Shown here: piece after piece, positions 13,747-30,015 of the stretch
How positions within the stretch are numbered: the stretch's first letter is position 1
How the letters are laid out: each line of letters begins with the position of its first letter
Sequence record: NC_073078.1
DNA from: Escherichia phage welsh
DNA length: 45,207 bases
Direction: 5' to 3' (one strand)
Made by a program: the position numbers and the translations under genes
The notes under the pieces: model-generated
The model's database searches: none
The model's input: only the letters and a program-made list of their open reading frames with translations
What the model was told of the DNA's origin: nothing

Positions 13747-13769
13747 GGGGCCATCCGGCCCCTTTTTTA
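13747..13769. terminator. Bidirectional terminator between the tail fibre gene and the end of the leftward operon
   Basis: GGGGCC-atcc-GGCCCC followed by TTTTTT on the + strand; genes converge here. Confidence 0.6.
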
Positions 13770-14342: not shown

Positions 14343-14384
14343 CGTGTGGTCCTCATTGATGCGGGCCGAAGCCCGCGATTAGAA

Positions 14385-14939: not shown

Positions 14940-15002
14940 GATGTGGTCCTGTTTATGGGAGGCCGTATTGCCTCCCGACGCGTTAACTATAGTGCAACCA
15001 AC

Positions 15003-15473: not shown

Positions 15474-15703
15474 TTTAAGCTCTCAATAAGGGTGTATCGG
15501 GCGCTGCGCGCGGTGAAGGAGTTGCACACGAAATGGCAACGCTGAGTCATGACAAGCCAACCGGTGAGGTCAAGGCCCAGGATGTATTCGGGGCGAGACG
15601 CGCGCACCACACGATTGCGTCGCGGGTCGATGTTATAGTCTCTTTGCATTTGGTATACGACCGCGGGGTCGCGGTCAACGATTAAGATATTCATGTAACT
15701 CAC
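15470..15703 (-). CDS. Hypothetical protein
   Basis: 77 aa ORF whose ends overlap neighbouring genes within the operon. Confidence 0.35.
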   Translation of the reverse strand: MSYMNILIVDRDPAVVYQMQRDYNIDPRRNRVVRASRPEYILGLDLTGWLVMTQRCHFVCNSFTARSARYTLIESLK

Positions 15704-16160
15704 TCTCGCTCATTATTTCAATTTGTGCGCTGCCGATGGGCGGCGCTTCGTCAAATATTATCAATTGCTGGCATTTGTTATTGCTCGGCCCTACTTCACC
15801 GGTGACGGCGTGAATGAATCTAATCCGCCAGTCCAGAAGAATTATCAGGTTTGCAGTCTTCCGGGCCAGCCTCGCCCACTTCGTCGACGTGTCCTGATTC
15901 AGCAGCATGACAGTCCGGCGTCCGTGCGCTGCGCACTCTACCCACGGCAGCGGATCGGAATACGGCGGATTGCACCACTTCCACCCTTTCAACTCGGACC
16001 AGTCCACATCAAGCGCGCTGTGTTCCGCCGTGAAGTAACGCGGTAGCAGGTGGTTTGCATCGCTTGCCGCCATATCGTAACGGAATCGGTACTTCCGACG
16101 AAGCGGTTTAAATAAAGCTGGCGGCGTGCGCCAGCTATCTTTTTGCTCACTCTTCTGCAT
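15675..16160 (-). CDS. DNA N6-adenine methyltransferase (phage Dam-type)
   Basis: DSWRTPP near the N-terminus and WCNPPYS (NPPY catalytic motif); 161 aa, typical of the small phage Dam family. Confidence 0.8.
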   Translation of the reverse strand: MQKSEQKDSWRTPPALFKPLRRKYRFRYDMAASDANHLLPRYFTAEHSALDVDWSELKGWKWCNPPYSDPLPWVECAAHGRRTVMLLNQDTSTKWARLARKTANLIILLDWRIRFIHAVTGEVGPSNNKCQQLIIFDEAPPIGSAQIEIMSESELHEYLNR

Positions 16161-16169
16161 GATCTGGGT

Positions 16170-16604
16170 CTATCGCATACAGGGCAATTTTCTTGTCGCT
16201 GGACAGAACGCGCCGGACTCGGGCCATACCGCCGGACCCAGCGGTCGGCTATCGGAATAGTAGCTGCCGTTCGCACGCCACGCTATCAGCACCGGGTCTT
16301 TCCAGTCGATCTTAGACTGGCGGCCCTTCGGGCGCACGTATTCCTCGGCCCGTTTGCAATGCTCGCGCAGACCTTCGGCAGTGATGCGGTTTAGCGAAAC
16401 GCTGGTTGTGTATCCGGTGCGCTGCATAATCCCCATCAATTCGAAAAGCAGTTCGAAGCGCTCCTCTAGCTCCTGGCGCACTTTCTTCTCGCCTTCATAT
16501 AGCGCCTGTTTGGTGTCCGCCAACGCGTTCGCACGTTCGGCCTGTTCGCGGGCTTCGAGGCATTGCGCGGCCCAGTATGCTTTTTCTTCTTGTAAAATTT
16601 TCAT
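16170..16604 (-). CDS. Hypothetical protein
   Basis: 144 aa; N-terminal coiled-coil character; no recognisable motif. Confidence 0.4.
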   Translation of the reverse strand: MKILQEEKAYWAAQCLEAREQAERANALADTKQALYEGEKKVRQELEERFELLFELMGIMQRTGYTTSVSLNRITAEGLREHCKRAEEYVRPKGRQSKIDWKDPVLIAWRANGSYYSDSRPLGPAVWPESGAFCPATRKLPCMR

Positions 16605-16847
16605 TTATTTAATCTCCGTAGTGCGAATCTCTTTGCGTGGAATAAATTTGCCATCCATCTCCACCCAGCAGACTCCGTATCGCCATTGGGTATTACGTCC
16701 CGTTTGCTCGGCATATACGGTCTTGCATCCGTAGCGTTCCGTATAGTAAATAGCCGCGGTAGGTACGAAAATACAAACGGCAAACATGAGGGTGAGTATC
16801 ACCCAAAATCGAAGGTCGCCGTCGTAGTCGAAAAATAATGATCTCAT
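16605..16847 (-). CDS. Small membrane protein
   Basis: Internal ATG 16847 with GGAGA RBS; one transmembrane segment (FWVILTLMFAVCIFVPTAAIYY); 80 aa. Confidence 0.45.
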   Translation of the reverse strand: MRSLFFDYDGDLRFWVILTLMFAVCIFVPTAAIYYTERYGCKTVYAEQTGRNTQWRYGVCWVEMDGKFIPRKEIRTTEIK

Positions 16848-16928
16848 CGTGTTGTCTCCAGGTATTAAAAAGGGCGTCCAAACCGGACACCCTAAATATA
16901 ATGCAACCAATATGATTATGCAACCAAT

Positions 16929-17252
16929 TTACGAATAAAAATTTGGGTCGCGCGCAACGTCTACCAGGTAAAGGTTGCTGATTCGGTTGCCGTAGTGGCC
17001 TGGTGTTCGCTGGCGGCACACAACGGCGAAGCCGGGAGGAATTGTATTGCCGGTCGCGATAATCCACGCCACGCGTGCGCCCGATAGAGTTTTGCCGTTG
17101 CATTCGATGCGCGTGCCGCCATCGGCAGTGTTAAGGTTGCCGATTTTGCAGCCGGTGGACTTCAGACGAATGACGCCGGTTTTGCTGTCGTAGGAGAATA
17201 ACTGGTTAGTCATTGCGACCGAAAAATCAATGGCTTCGAATGTAGTATTCAT
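16929..17252 (-). CDS. HNH-like endonuclease (phage HNH_3-type, possibly degenerate)
   Basis: YDSKTGVIRLK...GGTRIECNGKTLSGARVAWIIATGN...GHYGNRISNLYLV resembles the phage HNH pattern, but the usual first His is replaced. Confidence 0.5.
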   Translation of the reverse strand: MNTTFEAIDFSVAMTNQLFSYDSKTGVIRLKSTGCKIGNLNTADGGTRIECNGKTLSGARVAWIIATGNTIPPGFAVVCRQRTPGHYGNRISNLYLVDVARDPNFYS

Positions 17253-17959
17253 TTTAAATTTTCCTCATTGACTGCTATCGCGAAGCCGCGCGGGGTGAGC
17301 GACCGGATTAATTTTGTGCGTGCTGATTTGCCTCCGAGGCGACTATACTGCTTCGAGTACCCTTTTTCAACGAAAACGGGTTTCTTCTCTGGCATACGGA
17401 AGCCGTTGCCGGTCCATAAGCAGGTCAGCTTCGGATATGAATCGCGGGCGTTGATGTATTCCGGGAACAACGGATGTACGTCATCTTCCGGCAGATAGCC
17501 GCCATACTCCCACGGGTCGAACGAGTGATCCGGCTTGCGCCACTGGGTGGAAAGCACACTGCGCGGATTCTCAATCATATATGGCACTTCGAAGAAGTCA
17601 CCCAGGTAAGCGGCGATCTTCGCGGTGCGCACCGCCTTAAGCTGGAAGGCAGGGTCGCGGGCGCGTTTGCGCGGGAAAGCTGGCGCACCGCTAACCGCCA
17701 GATCCGTACACGGCGGGAATGCATAAATGATATCCGGCGTACCGAAATCGCCATTCATCGCGCGGTCCACGAAGTCCAGATCGATAAACACATTGCGATA
17801 GCGTATTCCGCGACCATAAATCCGGTAGTCAAGGTAAGACCCGTGATCGGCTTCGGAGTAGTTGAAGCAATAACACTTATGCCCCATCTCGGCAGCACGC
17901 TCAATCATCAAGCCGCTGCCGTCAAACAACGACCAGATTGTCATTTTAGCAATAGTCAT
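17249..17959 (-). CDS. DNA cytosine-5 methyltransferase
   Basis: LFDGSG (motif I, AdoMet binding), AFPPCTDLAVSG (catalytic PC motif) and YMIENPRS (ENV-type motif). Confidence 0.8.
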   Translation of the reverse strand: MTIAKMTIWSLFDGSGLMIERAAEMGHKCYCFNYSEADHGSYLDYRIYGRGIRYRNVFIDLDFVDRAMNGDFGTPDIIYAFPPCTDLAVSGAPAFPRKRARDPAFQLKAVRTAKIAAYLGDFFEVPYMIENPRSVLSTQWRKPDHSFDPWEYGGYLPEDDVHPLFPEYINARDSYPKLTCLWTGNGFRMPEKKPVFVEKGYSKQYSRLGGKSARTKLIRSLTPRGFAIAVNEENLK

Positions 17960-19470
17960 TTGCGCGCCTTTTTAGCTTTCATGTATTCCATCAGGTCGTC
18001 CTGGATATCTCGCTTACTGTCGCGACGCTCGGCGACCAATTCGTCCAGTGTCCCGCGCGCCTGGATAATGTAGACGAATACCGGTCGAGGGTGTCCGGCC
18101 TGCATCTGGCGAACCGGCCCGATACGTTCAACGATCTGCGAAAAGTGCTCAAAGTTCCAGGTATCGGAGAATATTGCCAGGTGATGTCCGCCGTCCTGCA
18201 AGTTAAGGCCGTGGCCCGCCGATGCCGGGTGTGCAAACATGATGGGGATCTCGCCCCTGTTCCACGCTTCCATATCCTTATTGCCCTGCTTACCTTTACC
18301 CAACGCAACGCCGTGCGGAAATTTCTTCTTAAGACGTGCCAGGTCATGCTTATACTGATACGCAACGAGCAACGGCGCGCCGTTCAACTCCTCCACGATA
18401 CTTTCCAGCGCGTCCAGTTTGGCGTCGTGAATCTTCACCCACTCGTCGGTCCTTTCGCCGTCTTCGTCCACCTTATACACAGCGCCGGAAGCAAGCTGAA
18501 GGCACTTAATTGTCTTAGATGCCGCGTTCGCCGCTTCCACTGTTCCGCTTTCCAGTTCGGCGAATAGCTCCGCTTCGAACTGGTCATAAATCTTGCGGGC
18601 TTTCTTCGGCAGGTCCACAACAACAGGCGTATAGATTGGCTTGTCGCACCCGAAGTATTCAGCCGCGTCAACGGTGAGGGATACATCTGACAGACGTTGT
18701 TGTATCTCTTTCTCGGAGTTCTTCAGCGGAGCGTGCTGCATAGTGAAGCTGCCAGGCTTAACAGGCTTGCTAATGAACCAGCGGTCGGTAAATGCCTTAT
18801 AGCTACTGCCGAGGCGTTCGCCACCGTCGACAAACCACGTCTGACCCCATAAGTCTTTCAGCCCGTTGGGTGCGGGTGTGCCGGTAAGGTTAATCCAGCG
18901 CTTGACGTGTTTATGTGCAATCGCTGCCAGTGCGCGGGCGCGCTTGCTCCCCTGCTTGCTACGATAGCCTTTCAGCTTAGTTGATTCATCGGCAACAACG
19001 ACCGTAAAGGGCCACGCATCGCCGTAATATTCGACCAGCCACTCAACCACATCGTAGTTAACACAAACCACGTTAGCGTCGCTCTCAAGCGCGGCAATAC
19101 GGTCCTTCTCCGGTCCGGTGCCGTCTACGACCAGCAGGGATGAGAACCGCCATTTCTCCTGTTCCGGGGGCCATGTACCCGACGCAACACGCAGCGGGGC
19201 CAGCACCAGTACGCGGTCCTCATGATGGGACAGGACGCCAGTCTGGAACATTTTATTCAGCGCCCACATTGTCGCGCCGGTTTTACCGGATCCCATTGTC
19301 GCCCATATATTACATCGCTTATGCTTGAGGATGAACGCGGTTATCAACTTCTGATATTCGCGGCGTCGGAATCGTGCCATTTCTTTATTCCGCCTTTTTC
19401 CAGACTTCGGTTTCACTGTTCCAGTTCCTTTTTGTAGCGTCGTAGTTGGTGGCGTGTCCGATGTGCACAC
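17956..19470 (-). CDS. SNF2/DEAD-like superfamily 2 helicase
   Basis: 504 aa; GSGKTG Walker A-like motif near the N-terminus; VVADESTKLK DExx-box variant; GTP..N and helicase C-terminal features; GTG start. Confidence 0.75.
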   Translation of the reverse strand: MCTSDTPPTTTLQKGTGTVKPKSGKRRNKEMARFRRREYQKLITAFILKHKRCNIWATMGSGKTGATMWALNKMFQTGVLSHHEDRVLVLAPLRVASGTWPPEQEKWRFSSLLVVDGTGPEKDRIAALESDANVVCVNYDVVEWLVEYYGDAWPFTVVVADESTKLKGYRSKQGSKRARALAAIAHKHVKRWINLTGTPAPNGLKDLWGQTWFVDGGERLGSSYKAFTDRWFISKPVKPGSFTMQHAPLKNSEKEIQQRLSDVSLTVDAAEYFGCDKPIYTPVVVDLPKKARKIYDQFEAELFAELESGTVEAANAASKTIKCLQLASGAVYKVDEDGERTDEWVKIHDAKLDALESIVEELNGAPLLVAYQYKHDLARLKKKFPHGVALGKGKQGNKDMEAWNRGEIPIMFAHPASAGHGLNLQDGGHHLAIFSDTWNFEHFSQIVERIGPVRQMQAGHPRPVFVYIIQARGTLDELVAERRDSKRDIQDDLMEYMKAKKARK

Positions 19471-19603
19471 CGGTAGCCCGGAAGCTCTTAAATTTTTGCC
19501 AGCACACCGTCAACGGCAGCGGATCATTCATGCCCGCGATAAACCATACGCGATCGCCCGGTTTACATTCGCCCAGCTTGGTGAGTCGGTAATGTTCTTT
19601 CAT
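19385..19603 (-). CDS. Hypothetical protein
   Basis: ATG 19603 with GGGAGA RBS (track ORF extends to TTG 19618); 72 aa. Confidence 0.4.
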   Translation of the reverse strand: MKEHYRLTKLGECKPGDRVWFIAGMNDPLPLTVCWQKFKSFRATGVHIGHATNYDATKRNWNSETEVWKKAE

Positions 19604-19611
19604 CGTCATGT

Positions 19612-19639
19612 CTCCCAAAAATGGCGGGACAAGCCCGCC
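19612..19639 (-). terminator. Minus-strand hairpin with U-tract (attenuator candidate)
   Basis: On the minus strand GGCGGG-cttgt-CCCGCC followed by ATTTTTGGG, immediately upstream of the next RBS. Confidence 0.45.
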
Positions 19640-19646
19640 GTATTAA

Positions 19647-19820
19647 TTATTTTTGTTCTGCACGGTAGCGGCGCTGCCGTTCGCGCTCTTTCTTATTGCG
19701 GCACGATTTGCACTCTGCCCGATACCCGTCTGGACTGCGCGCAGTCTTACCGGTGTATTTGTGGAACTGGGATAGCGGCTTGACACAGCCACAATTACTA
19801 CAACGTTTTTCTTCAATCAT
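19647..19820 (-). CDS. Small zinc-ribbon protein
   Basis: Internal ATG 19820 with GAGGA RBS; 57 aa with CxxC...CxxC (CSNCGC...ECKSC) and a basic C-terminal tail. Confidence 0.4.
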   Translation of the reverse strand: MIEEKRCSNCGCVKPLSQFHKYTGKTARSPDGYRAECKSCRNKKERERQRRYRAEQK

Positions 19821-19860
19821 CTCTAGAATCCTCGATATGGCTAACCGGCACACTATACCG

Positions 19861-20139
19861 CTATGCGACCAATTCAGCAACCAATAAATCGCAGTCGGAT
19901 ATGTTGTCGATAACGCGAACGTCAGCACCGCGGCGGGCCATTCGCTCATGTTCACGTACCTGGTGCGGCTTCGGTTTTCCTCCGGGGCGCTTCACTTCGA
20001 CGAACACTATTTTGCCGTTGATGATAATAATCAGGTCGGGCGCACCTGCGCGCCCCTCCCATGCCAGTTTTCGGCAGAATCCGCCAACATCTTTCACCCG
20101 TCTCATCAGGTGGCTTTGAATCTTGCCTTCTGGTGTCAT
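19861..20139 (-). CDS. VRR-NUC domain nuclease
   Basis: GAPDLIIIINGKIVFVEVKRPGGKPKPHQVREHE matches the VRR-NUC PD-(D/E)XK core; ATG overlaps the polymerase stop. Confidence 0.7.
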   Translation of the reverse strand: MTPEGKIQSHLMRRVKDVGGFCRKLAWEGRAGAPDLIIIINGKIVFVEVKRPGGKPKPHQVREHERMARRGADVRVIDNISDCDLLVAELVA

Positions 20140-22430
20140 TACTTCCTGTACCTGTACATAATGTCGCCTTCGGCGGCAAGTGGGAAGCCTTTCGCCCAAA
20201 TAGGCAGGTCGCACATCAGCGCGCAAAGCTCCTCTGTCGTGTAGTCGTCGGTGTCTGGCACTTCTGTGATCAATTCGTCGTGGACTGACAGGACGATTTC
20301 ATACCCCGCAGCTTCAACGCCAGGCATGGACCATGCGAGAATATCACGGCACAACGCCTGTACTATGTTCTCCGTCAGTTTGCCGCCGTAGGTATACTGG
20401 AAGCCCCACTGGCGCGTCGTCTGATTCTCGCCCTGATATTTAATGCGTGTGCTGGTGCGCTTCTTGCCGGTGTCTTCGTCAATCTCGGTCGTGACGGACA
20501 GCGCGATGCCTGGGTAGCTCATGATGCGCCCCGACGGCAACTCAATTTTCAACCACCAACCGGCGGCGTTCGGGTCGTCGCGCTCCTCGTCGAAGGTTGG
20601 GTCGTGCTTCGCCTTCGTGCGCACAATCTTAAGCGCTTTCCTACCGTCCGGGCGAACGTTCGCGCCAGCCCAGTACGCTTTGCCCGGATTGCGGATCGCA
20701 CATAACACCGCGTCCTCAAGCTCGGCCCAAAAGGCTACCGTCTTCGGGTGAGCCTCGCGCCACATACGTTTGATTGCGTCACAAGTCAGCCATACGTTTT
20801 TCGGCAGTATGTATGTTGGGCGCTCGTCCTTCTTACCAGGCTTCGGCGGGCGCTTCGCTTCGTTAATGCGGGCGTACTCATAGCCGCGTTTCGCCGCTGC
20901 CCAAATGTGATCCGGGAACGTGCCTTTCATCACGTCCGCCATAGTGTAAAGGTCGAGGCCCAGGTTTTTAGCGAACTGCAAGAACGCCGCGACGCCGCCA
21001 CCATAGCCCAGTCCCAATTCGCACGCCTTACCGATCTGGCGTAAGTCCTTGCGGTTGGCTTTAATGTAGTCCGGGTCCAGGCCGAACATCTTACCGGCAG
21101 TCTCACAATAGATATCGCGACCGGCCTTAAACACCATGAGCGCGGTTTTCTCGCCCGCGATCCAGGCAAGCCCACGCCCTTCCACGTTGGAGTAGTCCGC
21201 TACGACAAACTTCTTGCCCTTAGCCGGGATAATGCACCCGCGAACGGTCGAGGCTGTTAGCTTAGATATGTCATACGCCCAGTGCGCGGTCCCGCGTAAC
21301 AGGGAATTGATGCCGTTGGTGAGCATGTGCGTCCGGACCCAAAAAGCAACGTCGCTCTCGCCTTCGCGGCGCTTAATCTTCCCTTCGTGATCGTCGCTAT
21401 ACTCGCCGCGTGCCAGGTTTTGAGGCTGGAAGCCTTTACCGGCCCAGCGTAGCGTGCGCTTTGCCCCACCATACTGAAGACAACCACGGCGGCGACCATC
21501 GGCGGACAGGCCATTGACAAGCGGATTGTACTTAGTCGATGCCGTTGATGACGCACCGAGGCGCATTTCGATAAGCGCTTTGCCTTCGTCGGGGAAGTCC
21601 GGGTCTTCAAGCAGGTCGTTAAGTGTGGATTTCTGCGCGTTGTGGATTGTGAACGCCGGGGCGATATCACGCAGGATTGGCAGGAAGTCATTGCCTGTCA
21701 GTTTACCGCCAAATCGCTCCCAGGCTTCCTCCTTCAATTCTTCCTTATGCGCCTGCACCGCTTTGATCGCGGCGTTCGCCAGGTCAACGTCCACATAGAA
21801 GCCGCGGTCGTTGATCAACTGGTCGATAAGCAGGATTTCATCTTCCTTCGGAGTATTACCCCAGTCCGGTATGCGCCAGTAGACCTCACGCATCGCGATA
21901 ATATCCAGCGCGGCATATCGCAGAAATTTGGCCCATTCTTCAGGGTGAGTCTCGCGAGTGTAGCGGCGGATTTTGTAAGTCTTAGGGGTCGGCTTACAGA
22001 ATCGTTTGATCAGCGCCTTGCCTGCCTTATCCTTCGCGTGCTCTGCGTCAACGCCCAGCACCTGACACTGCATATCGAGGCTACCCGGCAGCGCGTGGCG
22101 AAAGGCCATAATCATTGTGTCTTCGATCTGGCTTACTGGCAGGTCGATGCCCCACTTCTCACGGATAACCAGGCGGTCAAACAGGAGGCCGTTAGCCATC
22201 ACTATTTTTGCTTTCTTGCGGGATACATGGCGGAGCGCCTTGCGCAGTTCACGCGGCATTGTGGGGGATTCAGTGCAATCCCATGTCTGCACGCGGCCCT
22301 CGTCGATGGCGTATGTGCAAATCATAATCTCGGTGGTTGGGTGCTCTGCGTAGGCGTACGCCCCAACCTTCTTTAGGTCCACCCCGCTAAATGTCTCGGT
22401 ATCGAGAAACAGGCGTTCGAAGTCTTTCAT
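20139..22430 (-). CDS. Family A DNA polymerase with 3'-5' exonuclease domain
   Basis: 763 aa; N-terminal FLDTETFSG (exo I-like DxE), central and C-terminal Pol I-like motifs including RQ..K.....YG and VHDE. Confidence 0.9.
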   Translation of the reverse strand: MKDFERLFLDTETFSGVDLKKVGAYAYAEHPTTEIMICTYAIDEGRVQTWDCTESPTMPRELRKALRHVSRKKAKIVMANGLLFDRLVIREKWGIDLPVSQIEDTMIMAFRHALPGSLDMQCQVLGVDAEHAKDKAGKALIKRFCKPTPKTYKIRRYTRETHPEEWAKFLRYAALDIIAMREVYWRIPDWGNTPKEDEILLIDQLINDRGFYVDVDLANAAIKAVQAHKEELKEEAWERFGGKLTGNDFLPILRDIAPAFTIHNAQKSTLNDLLEDPDFPDEGKALIEMRLGASSTASTKYNPLVNGLSADGRRRGCLQYGGAKRTLRWAGKGFQPQNLARGEYSDDHEGKIKRREGESDVAFWVRTHMLTNGINSLLRGTAHWAYDISKLTASTVRGCIIPAKGKKFVVADYSNVEGRGLAWIAGEKTALMVFKAGRDIYCETAGKMFGLDPDYIKANRKDLRQIGKACELGLGYGGGVAAFLQFAKNLGLDLYTMADVMKGTFPDHIWAAAKRGYEYARINEAKRPPKPGKKDERPTYILPKNVWLTCDAIKRMWREAHPKTVAFWAELEDAVLCAIRNPGKAYWAGANVRPDGRKALKIVRTKAKHDPTFDEERDDPNAAGWWLKIELPSGRIMSYPGIALSVTTEIDEDTGKKRTSTRIKYQGENQTTRQWGFQYTYGGKLTENIVQALCRDILAWSMPGVEAAGYEIVLSVHDELITEVPDTDDYTTEELCALMCDLPIWAKGFPLAAEGDIMYRYRK

Positions 22431-22597
22431 TGCTTAATCCTCACTACGGCGTCAGCACTGCCGATCATGGAGAAGATGCCGTCTGACAGGGCGATCTCTT
22501 CGCCGTTGTTGCGAATCTCGGCAACTGTGAAATATTCCCCCAGTAGCTTGGACCATACTTGCATTCCGACTTTTACTTCGCTGGCTTTAATACGCAT
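22427..22597 (-). CDS. Hypothetical small protein
   Basis: Internal ATG 22597 with AGGA RBS directly after the terminator U-tract; the longer track ORF would overlap the SSB gene. Confidence 0.35.
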   Translation of the reverse strand: MRIKASEVKVGMQVWSKLLGEYFTVAEIRNNGEEIALSDGIFSMIGSADAVVRIKQ

Positions 22598-22612
22598 TTT
22601 TCGTTGTCCTAT

Positions 22613-22637
22613 TAAAAAGCCCGCATTAAGCGGGCTT
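22613..22637 (-). terminator. Minus-strand intrinsic terminator/attenuator after the SSB-like gene
   Basis: On the minus strand AGCCCGC-ttaat-GCGGGCT followed by TTTTT. Confidence 0.55.
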
Positions 22638-22655
22638 GAATAGTGGGCTTTGCCC

Positions 22656-23285
22656 TTAACGGCGGCGACGTTTACGAGGTGCTTCGTCTTCGTCGTCGTT
22701 GTCCAGGTCTTCATCGGAGCAAGAAGACCCGCCACCGCCGAAGGCTTCACCGTCATCACGGAAGCGTAAACCCAGCAAGCCAGCACCGAGTCCCTTGCCG
22801 TTGGTGTTGTTCCACGCCCAAATATCAAGGGACACGTTGCAATAACAACCGGAGTAGATCTCCTGGCCTTCAATCTCGTCGCCGTCTATGGTCATACCTT
22901 GTTCAGTCTGCTTCTCGCCGAGTGACGTTTGAATGATTGGTTGTTTGAACGATTTGGCGTTGATATACAACATGCCTTCGAATTCTTCGGTTACTTCATC
23001 GCGCTCGTCGCCGTCGCGCACTGCGCATTCCTTAGAATCCTGGGCGTAGTGGCGGTCCATCCACTTATCGGCATTCTTCTCGGATTTCAGCTTGTCGGTG
23101 AGCACTGCGCGCGCTGCCGCTTCCACTTTGTCCACCTGCGGATCTTCTTTATCCAGAAGAATCACGGCACGGTATGCCGGTTTTTGTCCATCCTGTTTAG
23201 GGGTATCACGTTCCCAAATTTTCAGGAAGCATACGCGCACATTTTTCAGGTTGACTTTAGCCATTTTCCAATTCCTCATTTTCAC
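22656..23285 (-). CDS. Single-stranded DNA-binding protein (DUF2815-like)
   Basis: N-terminal MAKVNLKNVRVCF pattern, acidic C-terminal tail, position next to polymerase and DUF2800-like nuclease. Confidence 0.6.
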   Translation of the reverse strand: MKMRNWKMAKVNLKNVRVCFLKIWERDTPKQDGQKPAYRAVILLDKEDPQVDKVEAAARAVLTDKLKSEKNADKWMDRHYAQDSKECAVRDGDERDEVTEEFEGMLYINAKSFKQPIIQTSLGEKQTEQGMTIDGDEIEGQEIYSGCYCNVSLDIWAWNNTNGKGLGAGLLGLRFRDDGEAFGGGGSSCSDEDLDNDDEDEAPRKRRRR

Positions 23286-23354
23286 ATGTATCGGGGTTAT
23301 TGGAAGCCACCCCGTTCGGCTTGGTTGCTAATCTACTTGGTTGCGCCTGAGCGG

Positions 23355-23597
23355 TCAAGCGTTTTTATTAAAAAGATTTCGTGTCACGTAGTTGGTGGCG
23401 TTCTCGACCCAGCTTAACGGCGGGCGGTCGATGTTCTTCTCCACCCAGTCGACGGCAGCGTCGCTATATCCGTCGTCCAGCCATTGGGTCGGATGGCGAA
23501 TCATCCAGGCCACCATTAACACGCCTTGCACGCAATGCAGGATAAAGCCCAGCGCGCCGAGCAAAAACATCAATAAGATTGCGAATACTTTATTCAT
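23355..23597 (-). CDS. Small membrane protein
   Basis: 80 aa with N-terminal transmembrane helices (VFAILLMFLLGALGFILHCVQGVLMVAWMI). Confidence 0.4.
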   Translation of the reverse strand: MNKVFAILLMFLLGALGFILHCVQGVLMVAWMIRHPTQWLDDGYSDAAVDWVEKNIDRPPLSWVENATNYVTRNLFNKNA

Positions 23598-25020
23598 TAC
23601 TTAAATCCTCGTCGGTAGCTTCGGACCACGCGGGGCGCGGGTCGTCTATAGGGGCTAATACCGGTTTAGCCGGTGCGCGCGTGATTTTATCACACAATTT
23701 CGCCCACACTTTCGGCTTCTCGTCCTTCAATACCTTCTCGGCGTCGGTAGGACTGAGCAATGTTTCTTTGTACATCACGTCGCGCTTGATCCGGGCCTTA
23801 GTGAAGATTGCAATCACTTCGCTCTCGTCCGCCCACTTACGGATCCCTTCCTTACCGGCAACCATCTTGAGGCCCAGCGATTCGCCATCGCCAGCCATGA
23901 CCGCCTTGAATACCGCGGACTCGATAGCCTTGATGTGCTGGCGCATTGCGTCCAGGCCTTCATAAGCCTTGCGCAGTTCCGCAGCGCTCATAGCACCGGG
24001 GGCTGCTTCTTTCTTACCACGCTTCGCTCGTCGTGCCGCCTTCCGCGCTTCGCGGGCCATATTGCGGGCATGGTTGGCGCATTCTTCCTCTGTCGCAATA
24101 CTCACGTCGTCGCCCAGGTCTTCGTCGGTTGCCGTCGGTGGGGTCATCGTGTCGATTGCGGCCTTAGCGCGGGCACTACACTGATCCGCAAATCGGCACC
24201 ACTGGCACGCATCGACGCTGGGCCGGAAGTCCGCGCGGGTGAGTCCCTTCTTGCCGCGGGAATACGCCTCCAGTGCGGCAATAGCGCGCTTGGATGCAAA
24301 CTTCGCGAATATCTCCAGCGCTTCTACCGAAATATCCCACTCCGACGCCCCGCCGCAATACGGCTGGAAGATAACCAGGCGAACGGTCGTAATGTCGTAC
24401 ATAGTTTGCAGCTTGCGTAGCAGGCCGAGCGCGTACAACATAAGCTGTTTGTTTTCTTTCGCCTCGACCTTATGCCGCCCGGTCTTCAGGTCGCCAACAA
24501 TCAGCATGTACGTTCCATCGGTCTTTTTCATGACCATGACCATATCGGCAGTACCGAACGTTTTAATCCTGTTGCCGTCGATCTCGTAGCCTGAGTGAAG
24601 GACGCGGGTCAGATCGGCGCGCATCTCAAGCTGGACAAACTCCGCCACTTCGAGGAGCGGTCGCCAGTGGTCGATGTACGCGTCGCACTGTTTCACCATG
24701 TCGTCGTTGACCAGTACGCCGCCTTTCGGTGCTTTAGGGTGTGCCTTTACTGGCCCCTTGCCTTCGTTCTCGACGTAGCACCCTTTGTACGTTTTCGCGG
24801 TTATCAGCTTCTCACCGGCGATAATGCGGTTAAGCACGACTTCCGATACTGTGTGCATACTCGTACCGTTAATAGCCGCTTGCCCGGATTCGTTCGGGAT
24901 ACCCTGTTCTACCACCAGGGCCGCGGGACACCCCATCCATTTTTTAGCACCGGATGGCCCGAGTAATGAATGTTCCGTATTACTACCGGATTGTGTTTTG
25001 CGCTTCGGTTTAATCGCCAT
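23590..25020 (-). CDS. PD-(D/E)XK nuclease, DUF2800/Cas4-like
   Basis: 476 aa; N-terminal GPSGAKKWMGCPA pattern; sits in the conserved phage trio of nuclease, SSB and PolA; C-terminal Cys cluster CQWCRF..C. Confidence 0.6.
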   Translation of the reverse strand: MAIKPKRKTQSGSNTEHSLLGPSGAKKWMGCPAALVVEQGIPNESGQAAINGTSMHTVSEVVLNRIIAGEKLITAKTYKGCYVENEGKGPVKAHPKAPKGGVLVNDDMVKQCDAYIDHWRPLLEVAEFVQLEMRADLTRVLHSGYEIDGNRIKTFGTADMVMVMKKTDGTYMLIVGDLKTGRHKVEAKENKQLMLYALGLLRKLQTMYDITTVRLVIFQPYCGGASEWDISVEALEIFAKFASKRAIAALEAYSRGKKGLTRADFRPSVDACQWCRFADQCSARAKAAIDTMTPPTATDEDLGDDVSIATEEECANHARNMAREARKAARRAKRGKKEAAPGAMSAAELRKAYEGLDAMRQHIKAIESAVFKAVMAGDGESLGLKMVAGKEGIRKWADESEVIAIFTKARIKRDVMYKETLLSPTDAEKVLKDEKPKVWAKLCDKITRAPAKPVLAPIDDPRPAWSEATDEDLSNE

Positions 25021-25208
25021 TATTCCACCCTTGAAAATTGAGCAATGTAATAATCGTGTTCAACATTGGCCCGCTTCGCGGCATTGTTCATGGTAGCCGC
25101 CAGTCCTCGAGCTTGCATCCAGCAGCAATTCCAGTTTTGATTCATAACAATTTCTGGTTGCTCGTCGCCGGTAATACGGCAACGAAATAAAACAAAGAAT
25201 ATAGCCAT
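25020..25208 (-). CDS. Hypothetical protein
   Basis: 62 aa ORF with start/stop overlaps to neighbours. Confidence 0.35.
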   Translation of the reverse strand: MAIFFVLFRCRITGDEQPEIVMNQNWNCCWMQARGLAATMNNAAKRANVEHDYYIAQFSRVE

Positions 25209-25460
25209 TTATTTTGTCTCCCAGCGGTCAATTGTTTTTGCTTCGGATGCAACTGCGAAGCGAACATATTCCAGATTGGAATCCGCCCAAATATAAAAGT
25301 CGGGGTTAGTAAAGGTGGTGCGCTTAATTTGCGCGGGGGTGTTACGGCGTTTATCTATTACGGCAACGCGTGACTGAAAGCTGCCGATGCGTTCGAATAG
25401 CCAATAATATGGGCGCTGGTCGCGGGAGTCCACCGCCTCGATTAGCGTGAAGCGTGCCAT
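25209..25460 (-). CDS. Hypothetical protein
   Basis: 83 aa; GAGGA RBS; terminator-like hairpin immediately upstream. Confidence 0.4.
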   Translation of the reverse strand: MARFTLIEAVDSRDQRPYYWLFERIGSFQSRVAVIDKRRNTPAQIKRTTFTNPDFYIWADSNLEYVRFAVASEAKTIDRWETK

Positions 25461-25471
25461 TGTCTCGTCCT

Positions 25472-25500
25472 CTAAAAATAGGCCCGCAGATTAGCGGGCC
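25472..25500 (-). terminator. Minus-strand intrinsic terminator/attenuator
   Basis: On the minus strand GGCCCGC-taatct-GCGGGCC followed by TATTTTT. Confidence 0.55.
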
Positions 25501-25508
25501 GGATAATT

Positions 25509-25634
25509 TTAATCTTCACCGCCGAGTTGTCTATAAACCTCGTCCGGGTCGTCGCCTCTTTCTTCGCAGAAGGCGGTGAATGCCGCCCAATTTTCTGCTA
25601 TGAAATCGAGCATGATTCTCATTTCATAGTCCAT
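25509..25634 (-). CDS. Hypothetical small protein (41 aa)
   Basis: ATG with GGAAG upstream; MDYEMRIMLDFIAENWAAF...; below the track size threshold. Confidence 0.3.
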   Translation of the reverse strand: MDYEMRIMLDFIAENWAAFTAFCEERGDDPDEVYRQLGGED

Positions 25635-25638
25635 GATA

Positions 25639-26148
25639 TTAATCTTCCAATTCGAAATAAGTTTCGACGATTTCTTTTAGCTCTTTGTGGAAGTCTTCGA
25701 CGTCGTCATCTTCCAGCTTAGCGATTGATTTGATCTCGAACGATTCCAGCAGGTCGTCGAATTCGTCGTTCGCATCGTCGTCATCGCCACCGGCGATAAT
25801 CGCGGCATACTGTTTGATTTCGTCGCGCATCTCTGCCAGCGGATCGGCATCTTTCTTACCTTTGCCTTTCGCCGGTGCTTTTTTAGATTTAGCCGGTTTT
25901 TCGTCTTCGTCGTCGTCATCTTCTACGACTTCTTTTTTGGCCTTACCCTTCGCCGGTGCTTTTTTAGCTTTAGCCGGTTTTTCGTCTTCGGCGTCATCGT
26001 CGTCATCTTCGACAACTTCTTTTTTGGCCTTAGACGGCTTCTTGTCTTCCTGTTTACCAACGGCAGCGCCAACGGTTTCATAATGCTTTGCAATGGTTTC
26101 CAGTGCTACTACGCCGCGAGTGATCAGGTTTACGATTTGCTCAAACAT
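25639..26148 (-). CDS. Acidic/lysine-rich repeat protein, first gene of the leftward early operon
   Basis: Start chosen at internal ATG 26148 with strong RBS GGAGATATACC. Tandem KPAKAKKAPAKGKAKKEVVEDDDD units and an acidic C-terminal third; the DNA has a tandem duplication of about 85 bp. Confidence 0.6.
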   Translation of the reverse strand: MFEQIVNLITRGVVALETIAKHYETVGAAVGKQEDKKPSKAKKEVVEDDDDDAEDEKPAKAKKAPAKGKAKKEVVEDDDDEDEKPAKSKKAPAKGKGKKDADPLAEMRDEIKQYAAIIAGGDDDDANDEFDDLLESFEIKSIAKLEDDDVEDFHKELKEIVETYFELED

Positions 26149-26344
26149 GGTATATCTCCGATTGGTTAAGTTTAGGTGTCGGCAGTTAACTTCGTCGGTG
26201 GCCTTAACATATTGCCAGGTTACGCGTTCTCCCGTTCGGGTAGTGGACCTGGTTATATAATCACGGTTGGGAATCCTGACACTTCGATCCGGCCCCTGCG
26301 TTGCCCCTCTCCAGTTTGCGTCCTGCATCCTGTCGACGGGGTGA

Positions 26345-26549: not shown

Positions 26550-26879
26550 ATGAATGTAAACGACGCAATCGAAATGTTAACGAAGACTGTTTGCAGTGAG
26601 ACAAGCCGGTCATGGGCATACACCGATGCCGTGGGGGCTGTGTTATTTGAAATCGAACGACTGCGGCTTACCGAAAAAGAATTGCGCGCCAGGCTGGAAC
26701 TACTCAACGGTACAGCAGCAAGCAAGCTGCAAAAACACAATGAAGAAATGGAAGAATACAAAAAGCAGGTTATCCGTTTGCGCGCCGAGGGCAAATCTTG
26801 GGCGATGATTGCCGAGTTGACCGGAATTAATCAGAGCACAGTGCGCTCCTGGGTACGCAATAATAAAACTTCTAAGTAA
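26550..26879 (+). CDS. HTH DNA-binding protein (possible early regulator)
   Basis: C-terminal GKSWAMIAELTGINQSTVRSWV is helix-turn-helix-like; first gene of the rightward transcript. Confidence 0.45.
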   Translation: MNVNDAIEMLTKTVCSETSRSWAYTDAVGAVLFEIERLRLTEKELRARLELLNGTAASKLQKHNEEMEEYKKQVIRLRAEGKSWAMIAELTGINQSTVRSWVRNNKTSK

Positions 26880-26889
26880 GGCCACGGCA

Positions 26890-29154
26890 ATGAGCTTGAT
26901 TAAATTCGCTGTAACAAAACCCGCTAAAAAAGGCGAAAAAGCCAGGGCGGAAAACTTCCAGATGACGACCGATGAGTTTTTCGAATTTATCAAAGATGCG
27001 AAAGAAATCTCCTCGGTGCATATCAACAAGACGGAAGATAAAGCCGAGTACGCCCGCCGTAAGCGTAAGGCTGATGGCATTGTGGCTTATACCAGTGATG
27101 GGCTGCGCCGCAAGACCAGTGCCGTGGACCGCTCGATCCTGTTCTTCGATATTGACCGCACCGACACCCGCACCCTGCGCCGCTGCCGTAAGGCGTTCAT
27201 CGACGCGGGTCTGGAACACGTATTTCACACCACCACCGGCGACCGCCACCCGCTGAAGGGCGGCACGCGTTGCGCCCGTTTCCTGGTGCTCACTGACAAG
27301 CCTGTACCGGCTGAAGACCTGGGCCGAGTACAGTATGCACTATTACACCAACTGGGTCTGTCAGATGTGGACTTCGATGATTGCACGAAAGACACAAACC
27401 GCCTTATGTACCTGCCTCACCAGCAATCGGTTGTTAAGTGTCACTACGGCAAACGTGCCCGCGTCCGTCGTCTGCTTCGCCTGGCTGATAAGCTGGGAGT
27501 GGAAAAAGAGGAAGTACGCCGCGAACTAACCCAGGGCGATGACGGCGTGGCGGATGGTATTCTGGATTGGTGCTTCCAGGCAGGATTCGAACCGCTGTCA
27601 TCCGGTCGTGGTTATGAAGTGCCGTGCCCGAACGAACACCTGCACAGTGGTGAAGGGTCCACCGCTATCATGGTTAAGGATGGCGAGATCCGTTTCAAGT
27701 GTATGCACACCGGCAACGAGTGTTGCTCGGAACTGAACAGACACCAGCACCTGGCGCTACGTCTCATCGGGATACCGGACCACCTGAACGTCGAACCGCA
27801 CAACATGTCACGTAAGCAAATCGCCGCCATCCTCCCAGGGCTGGACGACGAGGAAGTCGAATCCTTATATGAACATATTGTTGATGCGGTTGGCGACGGC
27901 GAAGAATACGGCGTGTGCACCGATGCGGATCTGGATAACGAGCCGGTTGCGCTGTTCAGTAAGCACGACCCGATTATCGAGGGGTTGGTTAACTTTAAAT
28001 CGACCTGGTATATGGCTGGCGAGTCGAATATTGGTAAATCGTTCTACGTGCTAGGGCAGATGGGTGCGGTTGCCGCGGGTATTCCGTTTGGTGGCGCGAA
28101 GGTCGTCCAGTCCCATTGCTTCTATTTCGACGCGGAAGGTGGCGAAGCCTCTAACCAGCGCAAAGAAGCATTGCAGATTAAATATGAGCACGACCTGGAC
28201 AAGCTGCACATTATCGATCTGCAATCACGCGGCTGGGATATCACCAGCAAATCCGGCTTGCGTGAAGTTATCAGCTTCATCAACCGCACCGCTAACGGCG
28301 AGCCGGTTGGCCTGGTGGCGTTCGACTCACTCAACCAGACTGTTGCGCTGCGGTCCGCAGATGCAAAACCGTTCGACGAGAATAACGCCAGCGATATGGG
28401 TGAAGTGGTCAAAGCGCTGAAGGCCATTGCGGAAAATACAGGCGGCAGTGCGGGCGTCATCCACCACCCGGCGAAGGGTGCAAACGGCAGCAGATCTCCC
28501 CGTGGGTCCGGTGCGCTGCATGGCGCTGTCGATTCTGCGTTCTTCCTGGAGCAACCGGACGACAATCAGCCGGGCCAATTGAACCTGTATCACGAAAAGG
28601 CACGTAACGGCATCAAGCAAGCGCCGCGCGGCTTCGTCCTGCTCAAGTGCAAGGTTAAGGTGGATCTCCGCAAGTCCGAAGCGTTCGAATCACACCAGTC
28701 CACCAGCACCGGGCCAGACTTCGGCGATGTGGTTGCCGGTTGGGACGTCAAGCCAATCGCATCCACGCCACGCGACGAGACTCTTTACCTCGTACCGGTC
28801 GCCCTGGCACCGTTCGCTATTGAACAGGCGAAGGCTGCGGGCAAAGCAGCAGTTAAGGAAGAGAACGCCGCAGGGCCGCGCAACGAAAAAGAGAAAGTGC
28901 TTTATGCAGCACTGGAAAAACTGATGGAAGATAACCCGGACCATACCGGATTCAGCAAATCGGCAATTGTCCGCCAGGCTGGGCTTGCGAAAGGTGGCAC
29001 ATCTACGAAGGCAATCGACGATATGGTCGAGCGCGGCGTACTCGGTTTTTATACCGATCCGCACACTGGGGCCATCTATGGGTCGTCGAATATCGTCATC
29101 AAAACGAATATACCCATCACGCTTTCGGCGACCGATGACGACCTGAAAGATTAA
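26890..29154 (+). CDS. DNA primase/helicase (primase-polymerase-like N-terminus, zinc-binding region, RecA-like ATPase)
   Basis: 754 aa; Cys/His cluster CPNEHLHSGEGS...CMHTGNECC; Walker A GESNIGKS and Walker B-like VAFDSLNQ. Confidence 0.75.
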   Translation: MSLIKFAVTKPAKKGEKARAENFQMTTDEFFEFIKDAKEISSVHINKTEDKAEYARRKRKADGIVAYTSDGLRRKTSAVDRSILFFDIDRTDTRTLRRCRKAFIDAGLEHVFHTTTGDRHPLKGGTRCARFLVLTDKPVPAEDLGRVQYALLHQLGLSDVDFDDCTKDTNRLMYLPHQQSVVKCHYGKRARVRRLLRLADKLGVEKEEVRRELTQGDDGVADGILDWCFQAGFEPLSSGRGYEVPCPNEHLHSGEGSTAIMVKDGEIRFKCMHTGNECCSELNRHQHLALRLIGIPDHLNVEPHNMSRKQIAAILPGLDDEEVESLYEHIVDAVGDGEEYGVCTDADLDNEPVALFSKHDPIIEGLVNFKSTWYMAGESNIGKSFYVLGQMGAVAAGIPFGGAKVVQSHCFYFDAEGGEASNQRKEALQIKYEHDLDKLHIIDLQSRGWDITSKSGLREVISFINRTANGEPVGLVAFDSLNQTVALRSADAKPFDENNASDMGEVVKALKAIAENTGGSAGVIHHPAKGANGSRSPRGSGALHGAVDSAFFLEQPDDNQPGQLNLYHEKARNGIKQAPRGFVLLKCKVKVDLRKSEAFESHQSTSTGPDFGDVVAGWDVKPIASTPRDETLYLVPVALAPFAIEQAKAAGKAAVKEENAAGPRNEKEKVLYAALEKLMEDNPDHTGFSKSAIVRQAGLAKGGTSTKAIDDMVERGVLGFYTDPHTGAIYGSSNIVIKTNIPITLSATDDDLKD

Positions 29155-29229
29155 ATTTTGCGCGCATTGGTTGCCGATATGGGAATTCCCATATCGCTAA
29201 AAGATTAAATTTTGCGCGCGTTGGTTGCC
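29146..29229. repeat. 30-bp direct repeats flanking a perfect 20-bp palindrome
   Basis: AAAGATTAAATTTTGCGCGC(A/G)TTGGTTGCC at about 29146-29175 and 29200-29229 (1 mismatch); GATATGGGAATTCCCATATC at about 29176-29195; the left repeat overlaps the primase stop codon. Confidence 0.8.
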
Positions 29230-29269
29230 ATTTTGGGTGTTTCTATCTGGTCGTATTGGTTGCCGTGTA

Positions 29270-29480
29270 GTGTAAATATAATGAATAGTTATGCAGTTTT
29301 ATTGCATAAAGTAAGCGGGACAAAAAGCGGGACAAACAAGGGGCGGGACAAAGCGGGACAGCACCCCCGTCCCGCCCCGGATGGCGCGGCTTCCAGAGGA
29401 GCGGGACAGCGGGACAGCACCCCAGTCTTTCAGACTAGACGGGGGTCAACGGCCCCCCTCGTCTGAGACTGAATAAAATC
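29270..29480. repeat. GCGGGACA box array, copy B, with the conserved 3' hairpin module
   Basis: Seven or more GCGGGAC boxes. About 29393-29477 is near-identical to copy A (about 1016-1090); the 39-bp stretch between box clusters differs in sequence but is the same length as in copy A. Confidence 0.8.
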
Positions 29481-29626
29481 CGGGGATTGCAAAATACACG
29501 GCAGCATGATGCGAAGCGCGGTCACGGATGAACTAGGCAACCAATGCGAGTTGCAGAATGGTGGGTGAAAAATGCAGTTTGCAGTCACAGCAGATAGCGA
29601 TCAACTTTTTCATGCGCGTGATTAAT

Positions 29627-29662
29627 ATTGGTTGCATTCGGCCTGGCACCTTGCTATATTGG
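29627..29662 (+). promoter_or_regulatory. Candidate promoter overlapping two ATTGGTTGCA motifs
   Basis: TTGCAT, 17 nt, TATATT, about 30 nt before ATG 29689. Confidence 0.35.
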
Positions 29663-29688
29663 TTGCACACCAACATGAGGACTGAACA

Positions 29689-30015
29689 ATGAAAGCGATT
29701 ATCTGGAATTACGCAATGGCTATGGCGAAGGCACAAGAAGCGGCGGAGTTCGCCGGTGAAGGAGCGGAAGCGGTCGAAAGACTATCGGCAGCGTGGTCCG
29801 TTGTTCGCGTCACGCAGCAGGCCATCGCCTGTATGCTGGAGCGCCGCTTCGACACGATGGCAGAGATCCAGCCACTAGCGAACGCAATCCAGGACTACGC
29901 GCTTGCATTTGCCCGTGAGCGCCTGGCGTATCGCTTCGGGATCGGTGAGACGGCAGTGACAAACGTCGCCCGGATTAAAGCCCAGCGCGAGCTATTCGCC
30001 CAGCTTGCGAAATAA
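29689..30015 (+). CDS. Hypothetical protein
   Basis: 108 aa, predicted all-alpha; no recognisable motif. Confidence 0.45.
   Translation: MKAIIWNYAMAMAKAQEAAEFAGEGAEAVERLSAAWSVVRVTQQAIACMLERRFDTMAEIQPLANAIQDYALAFARERLAYRFGIGETAVTNVARIKAQRELFAQLAK

Follow-up and report, generated by a model that had tools for sequence, protein, structure and literature searches.

A duplicated box-and-hairpin module beside the helicase-primase gene of Escherichia phage welsh as a probable iteron-type replication origin

Escherichia phage welsh (sequence record NC_073078.1), of which we analysed one strand of 45,207 nucleotides (nt; hereafter the window), is represented here by approximately the whole genome of an HK578-like Escherichia coli siphophage of the genus Dhillonvirus. 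Downstream of its helicase-primase gene lies a module of repeated boxes and a hairpin (29268–29471) that, judging from its sequence, conservation and genomic location, is probably an initiator-bound replication origin module of the iteron type. A second copy is located among the tail genes; we refer to it as copy A and to the one next to the helicase-primase gene as copy B. The binding protein, the unwinding and the roles of the hairpin and of copy A are what we infer beyond this assignment, and each of these mechanistic steps is less certain than the origin as a whole.

Anatomy of the duplicated module

The octamer GCGGGACA (hereafter the box) occurs 16 times in the window against 2.1 expected, a count that none of 100 shuffles reached, and 12 of the 16 occurrences sit in two modules. 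A repeat search delineated these as a gapless direct repeat of 195 nt with 85% identity, at 897–1091 (copy A) and 29282–29476 (copy B); counted from TGCATAAA to the module end, 154 of 174 positions are identical, the module measuring 174–195 nt. The two copies are 16.8 kilobases (kb) apart, and the boxes of copy B start 161 nt 3' of the stop codon of the helicase-primase gene. Both have the same layout, in which an AT-rich stretch ending in TGCATAAA is followed by four direct boxes, a 40-nt spacer containing an inverted 7/8 box, two abutting boxes, GCACCCC and the hairpin (Table 1), with box offsets that are identical in A and B (0, 12, 28, 38, 86 and 94).

Comparison of the two copies refines an earlier note on this DNA, which was made from the letters alone and drew attention to copy B. 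As the note had it, copy B carries at least seven boxes, six of them exact and on the + strand and one inverted (matching at seven of eight positions), and the hairpins of the two copies are the same except for a single loop position (T1065 in A, C29450 in B). The spacer is indeed equally long in both copies, at 40 nt between octamer boundaries rather than the 39 given, but the remark that the copies share little sequence there was overstated, because 26 of the 40 positions are identical and the 14 differences fall within a 31-nt core. Two G/A differences were also correctly read; they lie right after boxes 1 and 2 (938/29323 and 950/29335), however, and not inside them, nor are they the only differences in the box clusters, as box 5 is TCGGGACA in A and GCGGGACA in B. 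The noncoding gap that follows the helicase-primase gene and holds copy B exists as described and comprises 534 nt (29155–29688), not 535.

Copy A is preceded by two additional units, each consisting of a head-to-head box palindrome (GCGGGACGTCCCG), then TTTGTCCC(G/A)CCC and then TGCATAAA, and the copy A region as a whole contains approximately 12 boxes with at most one mismatch, distributed over both strands. It is located between the frame for a tail assembly chaperone (ending at 780) and the tape measure gene (1155–3797), as assigned from related records and PHROGs, and interrupts a chaperone/tape measure junction that is otherwise tight. In the chaperone frame itself (457–780, + strand; DUF1799), no start codon follows the stop that precedes it, which fits expression by programmed frameshifting out of the chaperone gene located 5' of it, in the manner of lambda G/GT.

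In both modules, the hairpin is followed by the motif CGGCARCW (29499–29506 and 1125–1132), which recurs in the corresponding gap of every relative examined and is over-represented in the window in general (35 occurrences against 8.9 expected, on both strands and including genes). We considered CGGCAGCATGATGC as a sigma-54 site and rejected it because its spacing is not conserved in relatives. A G-quadruplex formed by the G-runs of the module was likewise set aside, the 7–9 nt loops making these weak candidates. A full-text literature search with the box string matched only unrelated eukaryotic primers.

Conservation of the module in Dhillonvirus

All 157 phage records that match 1-kb stretches around both copies (80–99% identity, nearly all of them E. 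coli Dhillonvirus) contain the module, nearly all in two copies; the module is also present twice in 14 of the 16 IMG/VR contigs that carry the hairpin, and a sister lineage designated 69% has one exact copy. We aligned 26 module copies from at least 13 genomes. In 23 of the 26, GCATAAA and the hairpin are 120 nt apart; a 1-nt deletion before box 3 is compensated by a 1-nt insertion in the spacer in at least two independent lineages, and HK578 has the box-3 deletion alone, which results in 119 nt. Because compensating indels hold the 120 nt while the sequence of the spacer is copy-specific, the geometry of the module is, on this alignment, under selection, in keeping with the spacing constraint proposed in the earlier note, and the equal spacing is indeed conserved in related genomes. 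The A-type spacers are alike across genomes, as are the B-type spacers, and the two types are unlike each other; therefore, the duplication appears to be older than the diversification of the genus, with both copies retained. Copy A is thus, as far as the alignment tells, an old duplicate kept in the late tail operon, and the note had been right to doubt a recent duplication.

The boxes are nearly invariant across the 26 copies, with single-base variants in boxes 1, 2, 4 and 5. The segment of boxes 5 and 6 exists as two alleles (AGCGGGACAGCACCCC and AGGCGGGACAAAGCCC), both occurring in A and in B copies, and alleles of the hairpin loop are similarly shared between the A copies of some genomes and the B copies of others, a pattern that indicates occasional exchange between the two copies. 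The lower stems of the hairpin are invariant in sequence in all 26 copies. Overall, 14 of 20 pairs never vary (one of the pairs scored was mis-registered onto a gap column), and changes occur only at the apex, are one-sided and keep the pairing (U.G to U-A, G-C to G.U).

Within the AT-rich stretch, the centre of the inverted repeat 29289–29309 reads GTTTTAT in some Dhillonvirus copies and ATAAAAC, its exact reverse complement, in others; this flip of the loop suggests that a small hairpin forms in the DNA in vivo. Several genomes deposited in GenBank or IMG (PNS1, Maverick, CHD5UKE2, Kente and HH3) start or stop within module A or B, and these record ends most likely reflect a break of the assembly at the 195-nt repeat and not true termini.

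The helicase-primase as candidate initiator

The protein encoded upstream of copy B is predicted to consist of an N-terminal primase-like part, a superfamily 4 (SF4) helicase similar to RSF1010 RepA and a C-terminal winged helix. In an AlphaFold2 model searched with Foldseek, the closest fold to the helicase core is RSF1010 RepA (1g8y; template-modelling score of 0.65, normalised to the target). The primase assignment is made because of the PHROG labels and the conserved residues of the N-terminal part, in which D87 and D89 (DxD) are invariant, H120 is nearly so and the Cys/His residues of 246–279 (Zn-Cys/His motif) are again invariant; a PDB sequence search with the N-terminal 340 amino acids (aa) produced no match. 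Among homologs, divergence is greatest in the C-terminal domain, which is 24–37% identical compared with 44–49% for the whole protein. According to the model, the helicase and the C-terminal winged helix would thus reside in one polypeptide, as in a self-loading initiator.

In sister lineages, a Cro-like HTH_3 protein is encoded just upstream of the helicase-primase gene. No homolog of this protein was detected in Dhillonvirus (E >= 0.5), where an unrelated helix-turn-helix (HTH) protein resembling sigma-70 region 4 occupies the slot, and the Dhillonvirus box nevertheless stays in the GGGACAA family. Therefore, the predicted winged helix is the only DNA-binding domain that adjoins the module in every lineage examined.

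Boxes next to helicase-primase genes of sister lineages and unrelated phages

Sister lineages were identified through protein homology alone, and the DNA 3' of each helicase-primase gene was then read. In 10 of the 11 lineage types, the gap of 370–650 base pairs (bp) after the gene contains a box of the lineage's own, repeated 5–7 times and usually accompanied by a GC-rich hairpin; boxes and hairpin are both present in Cornellvirus and eight other sister lineages. The boxes are GCGGGACA in the 69% lineage, AGGGACAA, GGGGATCA, AGGGATGA, AGGGATAA, GGGGATGA, GCGGACAA, TTCCGACA, TTCCGCACA and ACTCGCAA, with GGGGGAGA in Cornellvirus; the hairpins in relatives fold with z-scores of -2.5 to -5, with one exception at -0.06. 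Cornellvirus VSiA, whose helicase-primase is 44% identical, has the same layout in the same place: AT-rich GAATAGTTATGCA (twice; found as its reverse complement in the related contig L134), followed by GGGGGAGA boxes, one box in inverted orientation, one more box and a hairpin unlike that of Dhillonvirus. A second copy of the module was found nowhere in the VSiA genome. Judged by these comparisons, the position of the module after the helicase-primase gene is ancestral and general. The box type tracks the sequence at the start of helix 3 of the winged helix, with STKAID or NTTAIN accompanying GCGGGACA, RYKILK accompanying GGGGGAGA, YKKVLE or YGKTLA accompanying ACTCGCAA and RRR(A/S)xVKE accompanying GCGGACAA.

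The ACTCGCAA lineage has two full modules, one after the helicase-primase gene and the other 9.8 kb away, following a MuF-like head gene and preceding the scaffold and capsid genes (22098–22301 in contig L129; approximately 10867 in L196). The two-copy design thus recurs with a different box and at a different site in the late region.

We also scanned 2.9 million viral contigs blindly for two GCGGGACA boxes within 8 nt of each other, which yielded 120 loci, only about 25 of them from Dhillonvirus. At 15 of the non-Dhillonvirus loci (14 distinct sequences), an AAA_25 helicase-primase gene adjoins the cluster, which begins at -62 to +120 nt relative to the stop codon of that gene and comprises 6–17 GGGACA cores on both strands; the encoded helicase-primases have Prim-Pol or Toprim N-termini and a common C-terminal motif, 'FY...KKKAFxRA..L'. 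Approximately 14 further contigs carry 3–5 GCGGGACA boxes at 11-nt spacing within the gene for a winged helix-turn-helix (wHTH) and DnaT-like replication-organiser protein, an arrangement that resembles lambda O or SPP1 gp38, where the origin lies within the initiator gene. These in-gene boxes (L008, L012, L026, L031, L035, L059, L061, L063, L068, L103, L104, L116, L121 and L124) translate as SGT/AGQ/RD repeats directly after the HTH, in phages unrelated to the window. The boxes of the window are intergenic and do not lie within an initiator gene as in lambda O, and a hidden Markov model built from the GCGGGACA-linked wHTH replication-organiser proteins had no match in the window. Across these contigs, GCGGGACA is repeatedly tied to predicted replication initiators, at the level of DNA and on both strands. 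The earlier note had called the place after a primase/helicase gene typical of phage origins, and the lineage-specific boxes of 10 of the 11 sister types, together with the GCGGGACA clusters of the 15 unrelated contigs, argue in the same direction.

Proposed mechanism

In the mechanism that we propose, the helicase-primase would be a self-loading initiator, a single chain uniting a primase, a hexameric helicase of the RepA type and an origin-binding domain; the last of these, its C-terminal winged helix, would recognise the GCGGGACA boxes in double-stranded DNA as iterons. Protein bound to the six direct boxes and the inverted one within the fixed 120-bp frame would distort the adjacent AT-rich stretch (29268–29314), where the helicase would load itself in the manner of SaPI Rep. 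Once extruded in single-stranded form, the invariant GC-rich hairpin could provide a defined entry or start site for the primase/helicase, similar to the RSF1010 ssi sites. Copy A (785–1091) would bind the same protein and might be a second origin or a site of fork stalling, organisation or pairing, comparable to SPP1 oriR or P4 crr.

A broader scenario, tentative and on the whole doubtful, is that of a portable origin cassette whose late-operon copy acts as a programmed, initiator-bound fork barrier or pairing partner, the logic of SPP1 having evolved independently at least twice in Gram-negative siphophages. Such a cassette may combine, in fixed register, an unwinding element, iterons and an invariant hairpin as entry site for the primase/helicase, for a family of primase/RepA-helicase/winged-helix initiators, and the late copy may time the switch from circle-to-circle to concatemeric replication, with Dhillonvirus and the ACTCGCAA lineage as independent cases.

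Several observations weigh against the assignment of copy B as an initiator-bound origin. The GC skew switches only where gene orientation changes (approximately 13.7 and 26.3 kb) and not at the modules; since it tracks gene orientation only, we discarded it as an origin marker. One of the 11 lineage types, RRPALKAL, shows no clear repeats after the gene, and the Kagunavirus and Jerseyvirus relatives have no such module 3' of their genes. The link between box type and helix 3 is confounded by shared descent, and the small HTH proteins vary by lineage as well. Profile comparison of the winged helix of the window with the DNA-binding regions of other GCGGGACA-using proteins was not significant (E of 0.027–0.25), and we therefore take the loci from the blind scan as a functional parallel only; a common box does not establish a common reader. 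In copy B, the transcribed strand carries every box, 3' of a promoter-like TTGGTTGC..TATAAT, so that a role at the RNA level is possible. The covariation in the hairpin that the earlier note had proposed to compute gave no signal within the genus because the stems are invariant, and this invariance hints at a further, sequence-specific partner of the hairpin.

Coordinates, promoter-like motifs and genome setting

Table 1. Features of the module copies and their surroundings in the window
Feature	Position	Strand	Remarks
AT-rich segment, candidate DNA-unwinding element	29268–29314	.	Composition minimum, GC 0.30–0.33; directly beside box 1
GAATAGTTATGCA	29283–29295		Inside AT-rich segment of copy B
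Inverted repeat TTATGCA-N7-TGCATAA	29289–29309		Inside AT-rich segment of copy B
Box cluster 1, four direct GCGGGACA	29315–29360	+	Boxes at 29315, 29327, 29343 and 29353
Spacer, copy-specific, fixed 40 nt	29361–29400	.	Inverted 7/8 box at 29368–29375, pairs with box 3
Box cluster 2, two abutting GCGGGACA	29401–29416	+	Boxes at 29401 and 29409
Imperfect hairpin, 49 nt, CAGTC..GACTG, G5/C5 apex	29423–29471	.	DNA fold -11.4 kcal/mol, z = -2.9
Copy A module	918–1091	+	TGCATAAA 918–925, boxes 930–975, spacer 976–1015, boxes 1016–1031, hairpin 1038–1086
Copy A extra upstream region, two units	785–925	.	Repeat search: 63 nt, 75% identity
Helicase-primase gene, 754 aa, candidate initiator	26890–29154	+	Pfam AAA_25 at residues 357–531, E 6e-19; PHROG 3228 'replicative helicase-primase'
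C-terminal winged-helix coding segment (approximately aa 660–740), predicted box reader	28867–29109	+	
54-nt tandem duplication over stop codon	29143–29246	+	Repeat search, 82% identity; each unit with TTGGTTGC
Sigma-70-like promoter TTGCAT-17 nt-TATATT	29632–29660	+	Read from sequence; for gene 29689–30015; built on TTGGTTGCA

The genes of the window run rightward from 26550 around to 13740 (small HTH protein, helicase-primase, lysis, packaging, head and tail), and the replication genes at 13767–26328 run leftward; a tRNA/tmRNA scan found none. The motif TTGGTTGC is present at 22 sites against 2 expected, mostly as intergenic pairs oriented with the genes (including 14994/15006, 16903/16920, 23321/23337, 26353, 29167, 29221, 29256, 29628/29659, 32774/32797 and 40394/40407). 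Its 3' half provides TTGCAt -35 hexamers located 16–17 nt before TATAtT-like -10 hexamers, and the motif looks like the phage's own promoter family; in sister lineages, GTTGGC(A/T)GC is found in its place. The tandem duplication over the stop codon of the helicase-primase gene copies the last codons and the stop along with the TTGGTTGC site. A scan for sigma-70 promoters missed the promoter listed in Table 1 because TTGCAT matches TTGACA at only three of six positions. A candidate reader of the -35-like motif of TTGGTTGC is the 109-aa protein encoded just 5' of the helicase-primase gene (26550–26879, + strand), which contains an HTH similar to sigma-70 region 4 and HTH_23.

Elsewhere in the window, the open reading frame 25639–26328 (- strand, 229 aa) contains 81-nt tandem repeats (25845–26032) encoding alternating lysine/alanine-rich and acidic stretches, and related short repeats are also present at 22671 and 21177.

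Alternative explanations

That the module controls transcription is, in our assessment, unlikely. The boxes would then be operators bound by a phage regulator, for example the HTH protein of 26550–26879, or by the winged helix in the role of a repressor, terminators or insulators would be formed by the hairpins and palindromes, copy B would be an early-to-late switch, and copy A would lower the expression of the tape measure and tail-tip genes relative to those for the tail tube and chaperone. The genomic locations suit such a role: copy B is found where the early HTH/helicase-primase genes give way to a long rightward late unit, with promoter-type TTGGTTGC motifs on either side, and copy A separates genes needed in high amounts from those needed in low amounts, while the variation of the small HTH proteins between lineages is also compatible with it. 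Furthermore, the palindromes 785–805 and 863–883, followed by TTTGT/TTTTGT, are weak terminator candidates, the former being annotated as a terminator in HK578 and the latter overlapping a terminator call on the - strand (875–855), and terminators are annotated in region A of both HK578 and PTXU06. The main hairpin, however, had to be rejected as an intrinsic terminator, given that the GC-rich stem-loop is followed by AATAAAAT or AATAAGGT and not by a T/U run and that the terminator scan called neither module hairpin (29423–29471 and 1038–1086). Moreover, the other promoter regions are marked by TTGGTTGC and lack GCGGGACA, the box family is kept although the small HTH protein of Dhillonvirus is unrelated, the box adjoins helicase-primase genes in the 15 unrelated contigs whatever the neighbouring genes, and the presence of copy B alone in Cornellvirus implies that the module did not originally serve to control the tape measure gene.

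We consider rather improbable a structured noncoding or cis-acting RNA present in two copies (compare putL/putR of HK022, or a small RNA that acts as a protein sponge), with transcription from the TGCATAAA region, the boxes as protein-binding RNA motifs and the hairpin as an element of stability or processing. The z-score of -2.25 for the RNA fold of 181 nt (-69.6 kcal/mol) and the strict conservation of the hairpin stems would be expected of such an RNA, and the boxes of the core of copy A, like those of copy B, are all on the transcribed strand, both copies lying 3' of possible promoters. Nevertheless, Rfam produced no match for the whole window at the gathering threshold or for region B at E <= 1, and at the latter cutoff region A yielded only chance microRNA-precursor hairpins far below threshold; the sigma-70 promoter scan found no sites in region B and a single one in region A (752–781), approximately 140 nt upstream of the module; and no compensatory covariation is seen. 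The presence of boxes on either strand, in region A as well as in the clusters beside unrelated helicase genes, their spacing of 10–12 nt here and 11 nt in other phages, which corresponds to the helical repeat of DNA, and the combination of a fixed length with a variable spacer sequence all suit a geometry imposed on DNA better than an RNA.

Finally, a gene for a small protein of approximately 62 aa, or a functionless recent duplication or selfish repeat, is very improbable: most copies have a frame that stays open through the module and ends at the same TGA, and 'hypothetical protein' features overlap the module in many records, several of them in GenBank with this very protein, but several frames are open together because the sequence is GC-rich, the variable columns per codon position across the 26 copies number 25/28/17, so that the third position is the least variable, frameshifting 1-nt indels are tolerated, no common start codon or Shine-Dalgarno/ribosome-binding site is found across the copies, and gene callers predict nothing in the equivalent gaps of relatives, all of which led us to reject the coding explanation, as the earlier note had done, whereas a neutral or recent repeat would be at odds with A- and B-type spacers that are each conserved across genomes and with the maintained spacing. 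The proteins annotated over the modules in many related records accordingly appear spurious.

Significance

An iteron origin next to the initiator gene is a familiar kind of origin and would be new for this phage group, as our literature search found no description of an origin for Dhillonvirus or Cornellvirus-like relatives. Its unusual features are the fused primase-helicase of the SF4 RepA-like type, the rigid spacing, the invariant hairpin and the second copy retained in the late operon. Among coliphages and Salmonella phages, Dhillonviruses and the Cornellvirus-like group related to them are common, and they are used in phage collections and therapy panels. If copy B is an origin bound by the helicase-primase, the origin and its reader would account for two long conserved gaps that are currently unannotated or filled with spurious proteins, would explain the assembly breaks at the module repeat and would yield a minimal replicon with which these phages could be engineered. 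Such an origin would also widen the paradigm of the self-loading helicase from superfamily 3 (SF3) proteins, such as SaPI Rep and P4 alpha, to SF4 primase-helicases of the RepA type. The paired variants of box and winged helix offer a natural series for studying the evolution of initiator specificity, and the recurrent second copy in the late region a Gram-negative system for the fork-stalling model of SPP1.

Comparison with known systems

The closest architectural parallel is the Rep/PriRep protein of staphylococcal pathogenicity islands (SaPI), a self-loading helicase, in some cases also fused to a primase, whose C-terminal winged-helix domain reads six to twelve element-specific iterons located immediately 3' of rep and next to an AT-rich region (PMC9371898). 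As in SaPI Rep, helicase and C-terminal winged helix are predicted here in one protein, and a cluster of short repeats, element-specific in sequence and neighbouring an AT-rich segment, lies directly 3' of its gene; the likeness is one of architecture. Unlike the SF3/AAA+ helicase of SaPI, that of the phage is predicted to have the RecA fold of SF4 helicases similar to RSF1010 RepA (AAA_25). Whereas SaPI iterons flank the AT-rich region in opposite orientations, the boxes of the window are octamers, mostly direct and confined to the right side of the AT-rich stretch, and the module additionally comprises the invariant 49-nt hairpin at fixed distance and a second copy 16.8 kb away.

With respect to the duplication, the parallel is Bacillus phage SPP1. 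SPP1 oriL and oriR are described as direct repeats with an AT-rich unwinding element, both bound by the initiator gp38; oriR belongs to a segment by which the series of late morphogenesis genes is interrupted (PMC6316719) and has been proposed to stall forks and to trigger the theta-to-sigma switch, that is, concatemer synthesis (PMC6316719, PMC3485210). Dhillonvirus similarly has two alike modules of direct repeats and AT-rich DNA, one at the candidate initiator gene and one among the late genes, as in the majority of the IMG/VR contigs examined, and its late copy, like oriR, is bracketed by transcription signals. In SPP1, a DnaD-like organiser is the initiator and acts as a protein separate from its loader and from a DnaB-type helicase, and oriL lies inside the organiser gene, whereas the candidate here is a fused primase-helicase-winged-helix protein with the putative origin 3' of the gene, and neither a gp38/DnaD-like organiser nor a separate loader with a DnaB helicase was found in the window. 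The second copy in Dhillonvirus also occupies a different place, between the tail chaperone and tape measure genes. The site of the second module in the ACTCGCAA lineage, after the MuF-like head gene, is one that we take to be the slot of SPP1 oriR.

The alpha protein of satellite phage P4 combines a primase, an SF3 helicase and a C-terminal winged-helix origin-binding domain, and its iteron, TGTTCACC, is present in two separated clusters, ori and the cis replication region (crr), both bound by alpha. The predicted domain order of the phage protein and the presence of the same short iteron in two separated clusters are shared with P4; the primase, the SF3 helicase, the iteron and the positions relative to the gene differ, and P4 is not known to have an equivalent of the invariant hairpin. 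The oriV of plasmid RSF1010 comprises iterons, GC-rich and AT-rich segments and hairpin ssi sites used by a dedicated primase; RepA, RepB' and RepC are separate proteins, RepC rather than the helicase reads the 20-bp iterons, and the two ssi hairpins are on opposite strands. Unlike in RSF1010, the activities would be fused in a single chain in Dhillonvirus, and each module has one hairpin, for which an ssi role is suggested by analogy; what the two systems appear to have in common is a hexameric helicase of the RepA type together with iterons, GC-rich and AT-rich segments and a hairpin.

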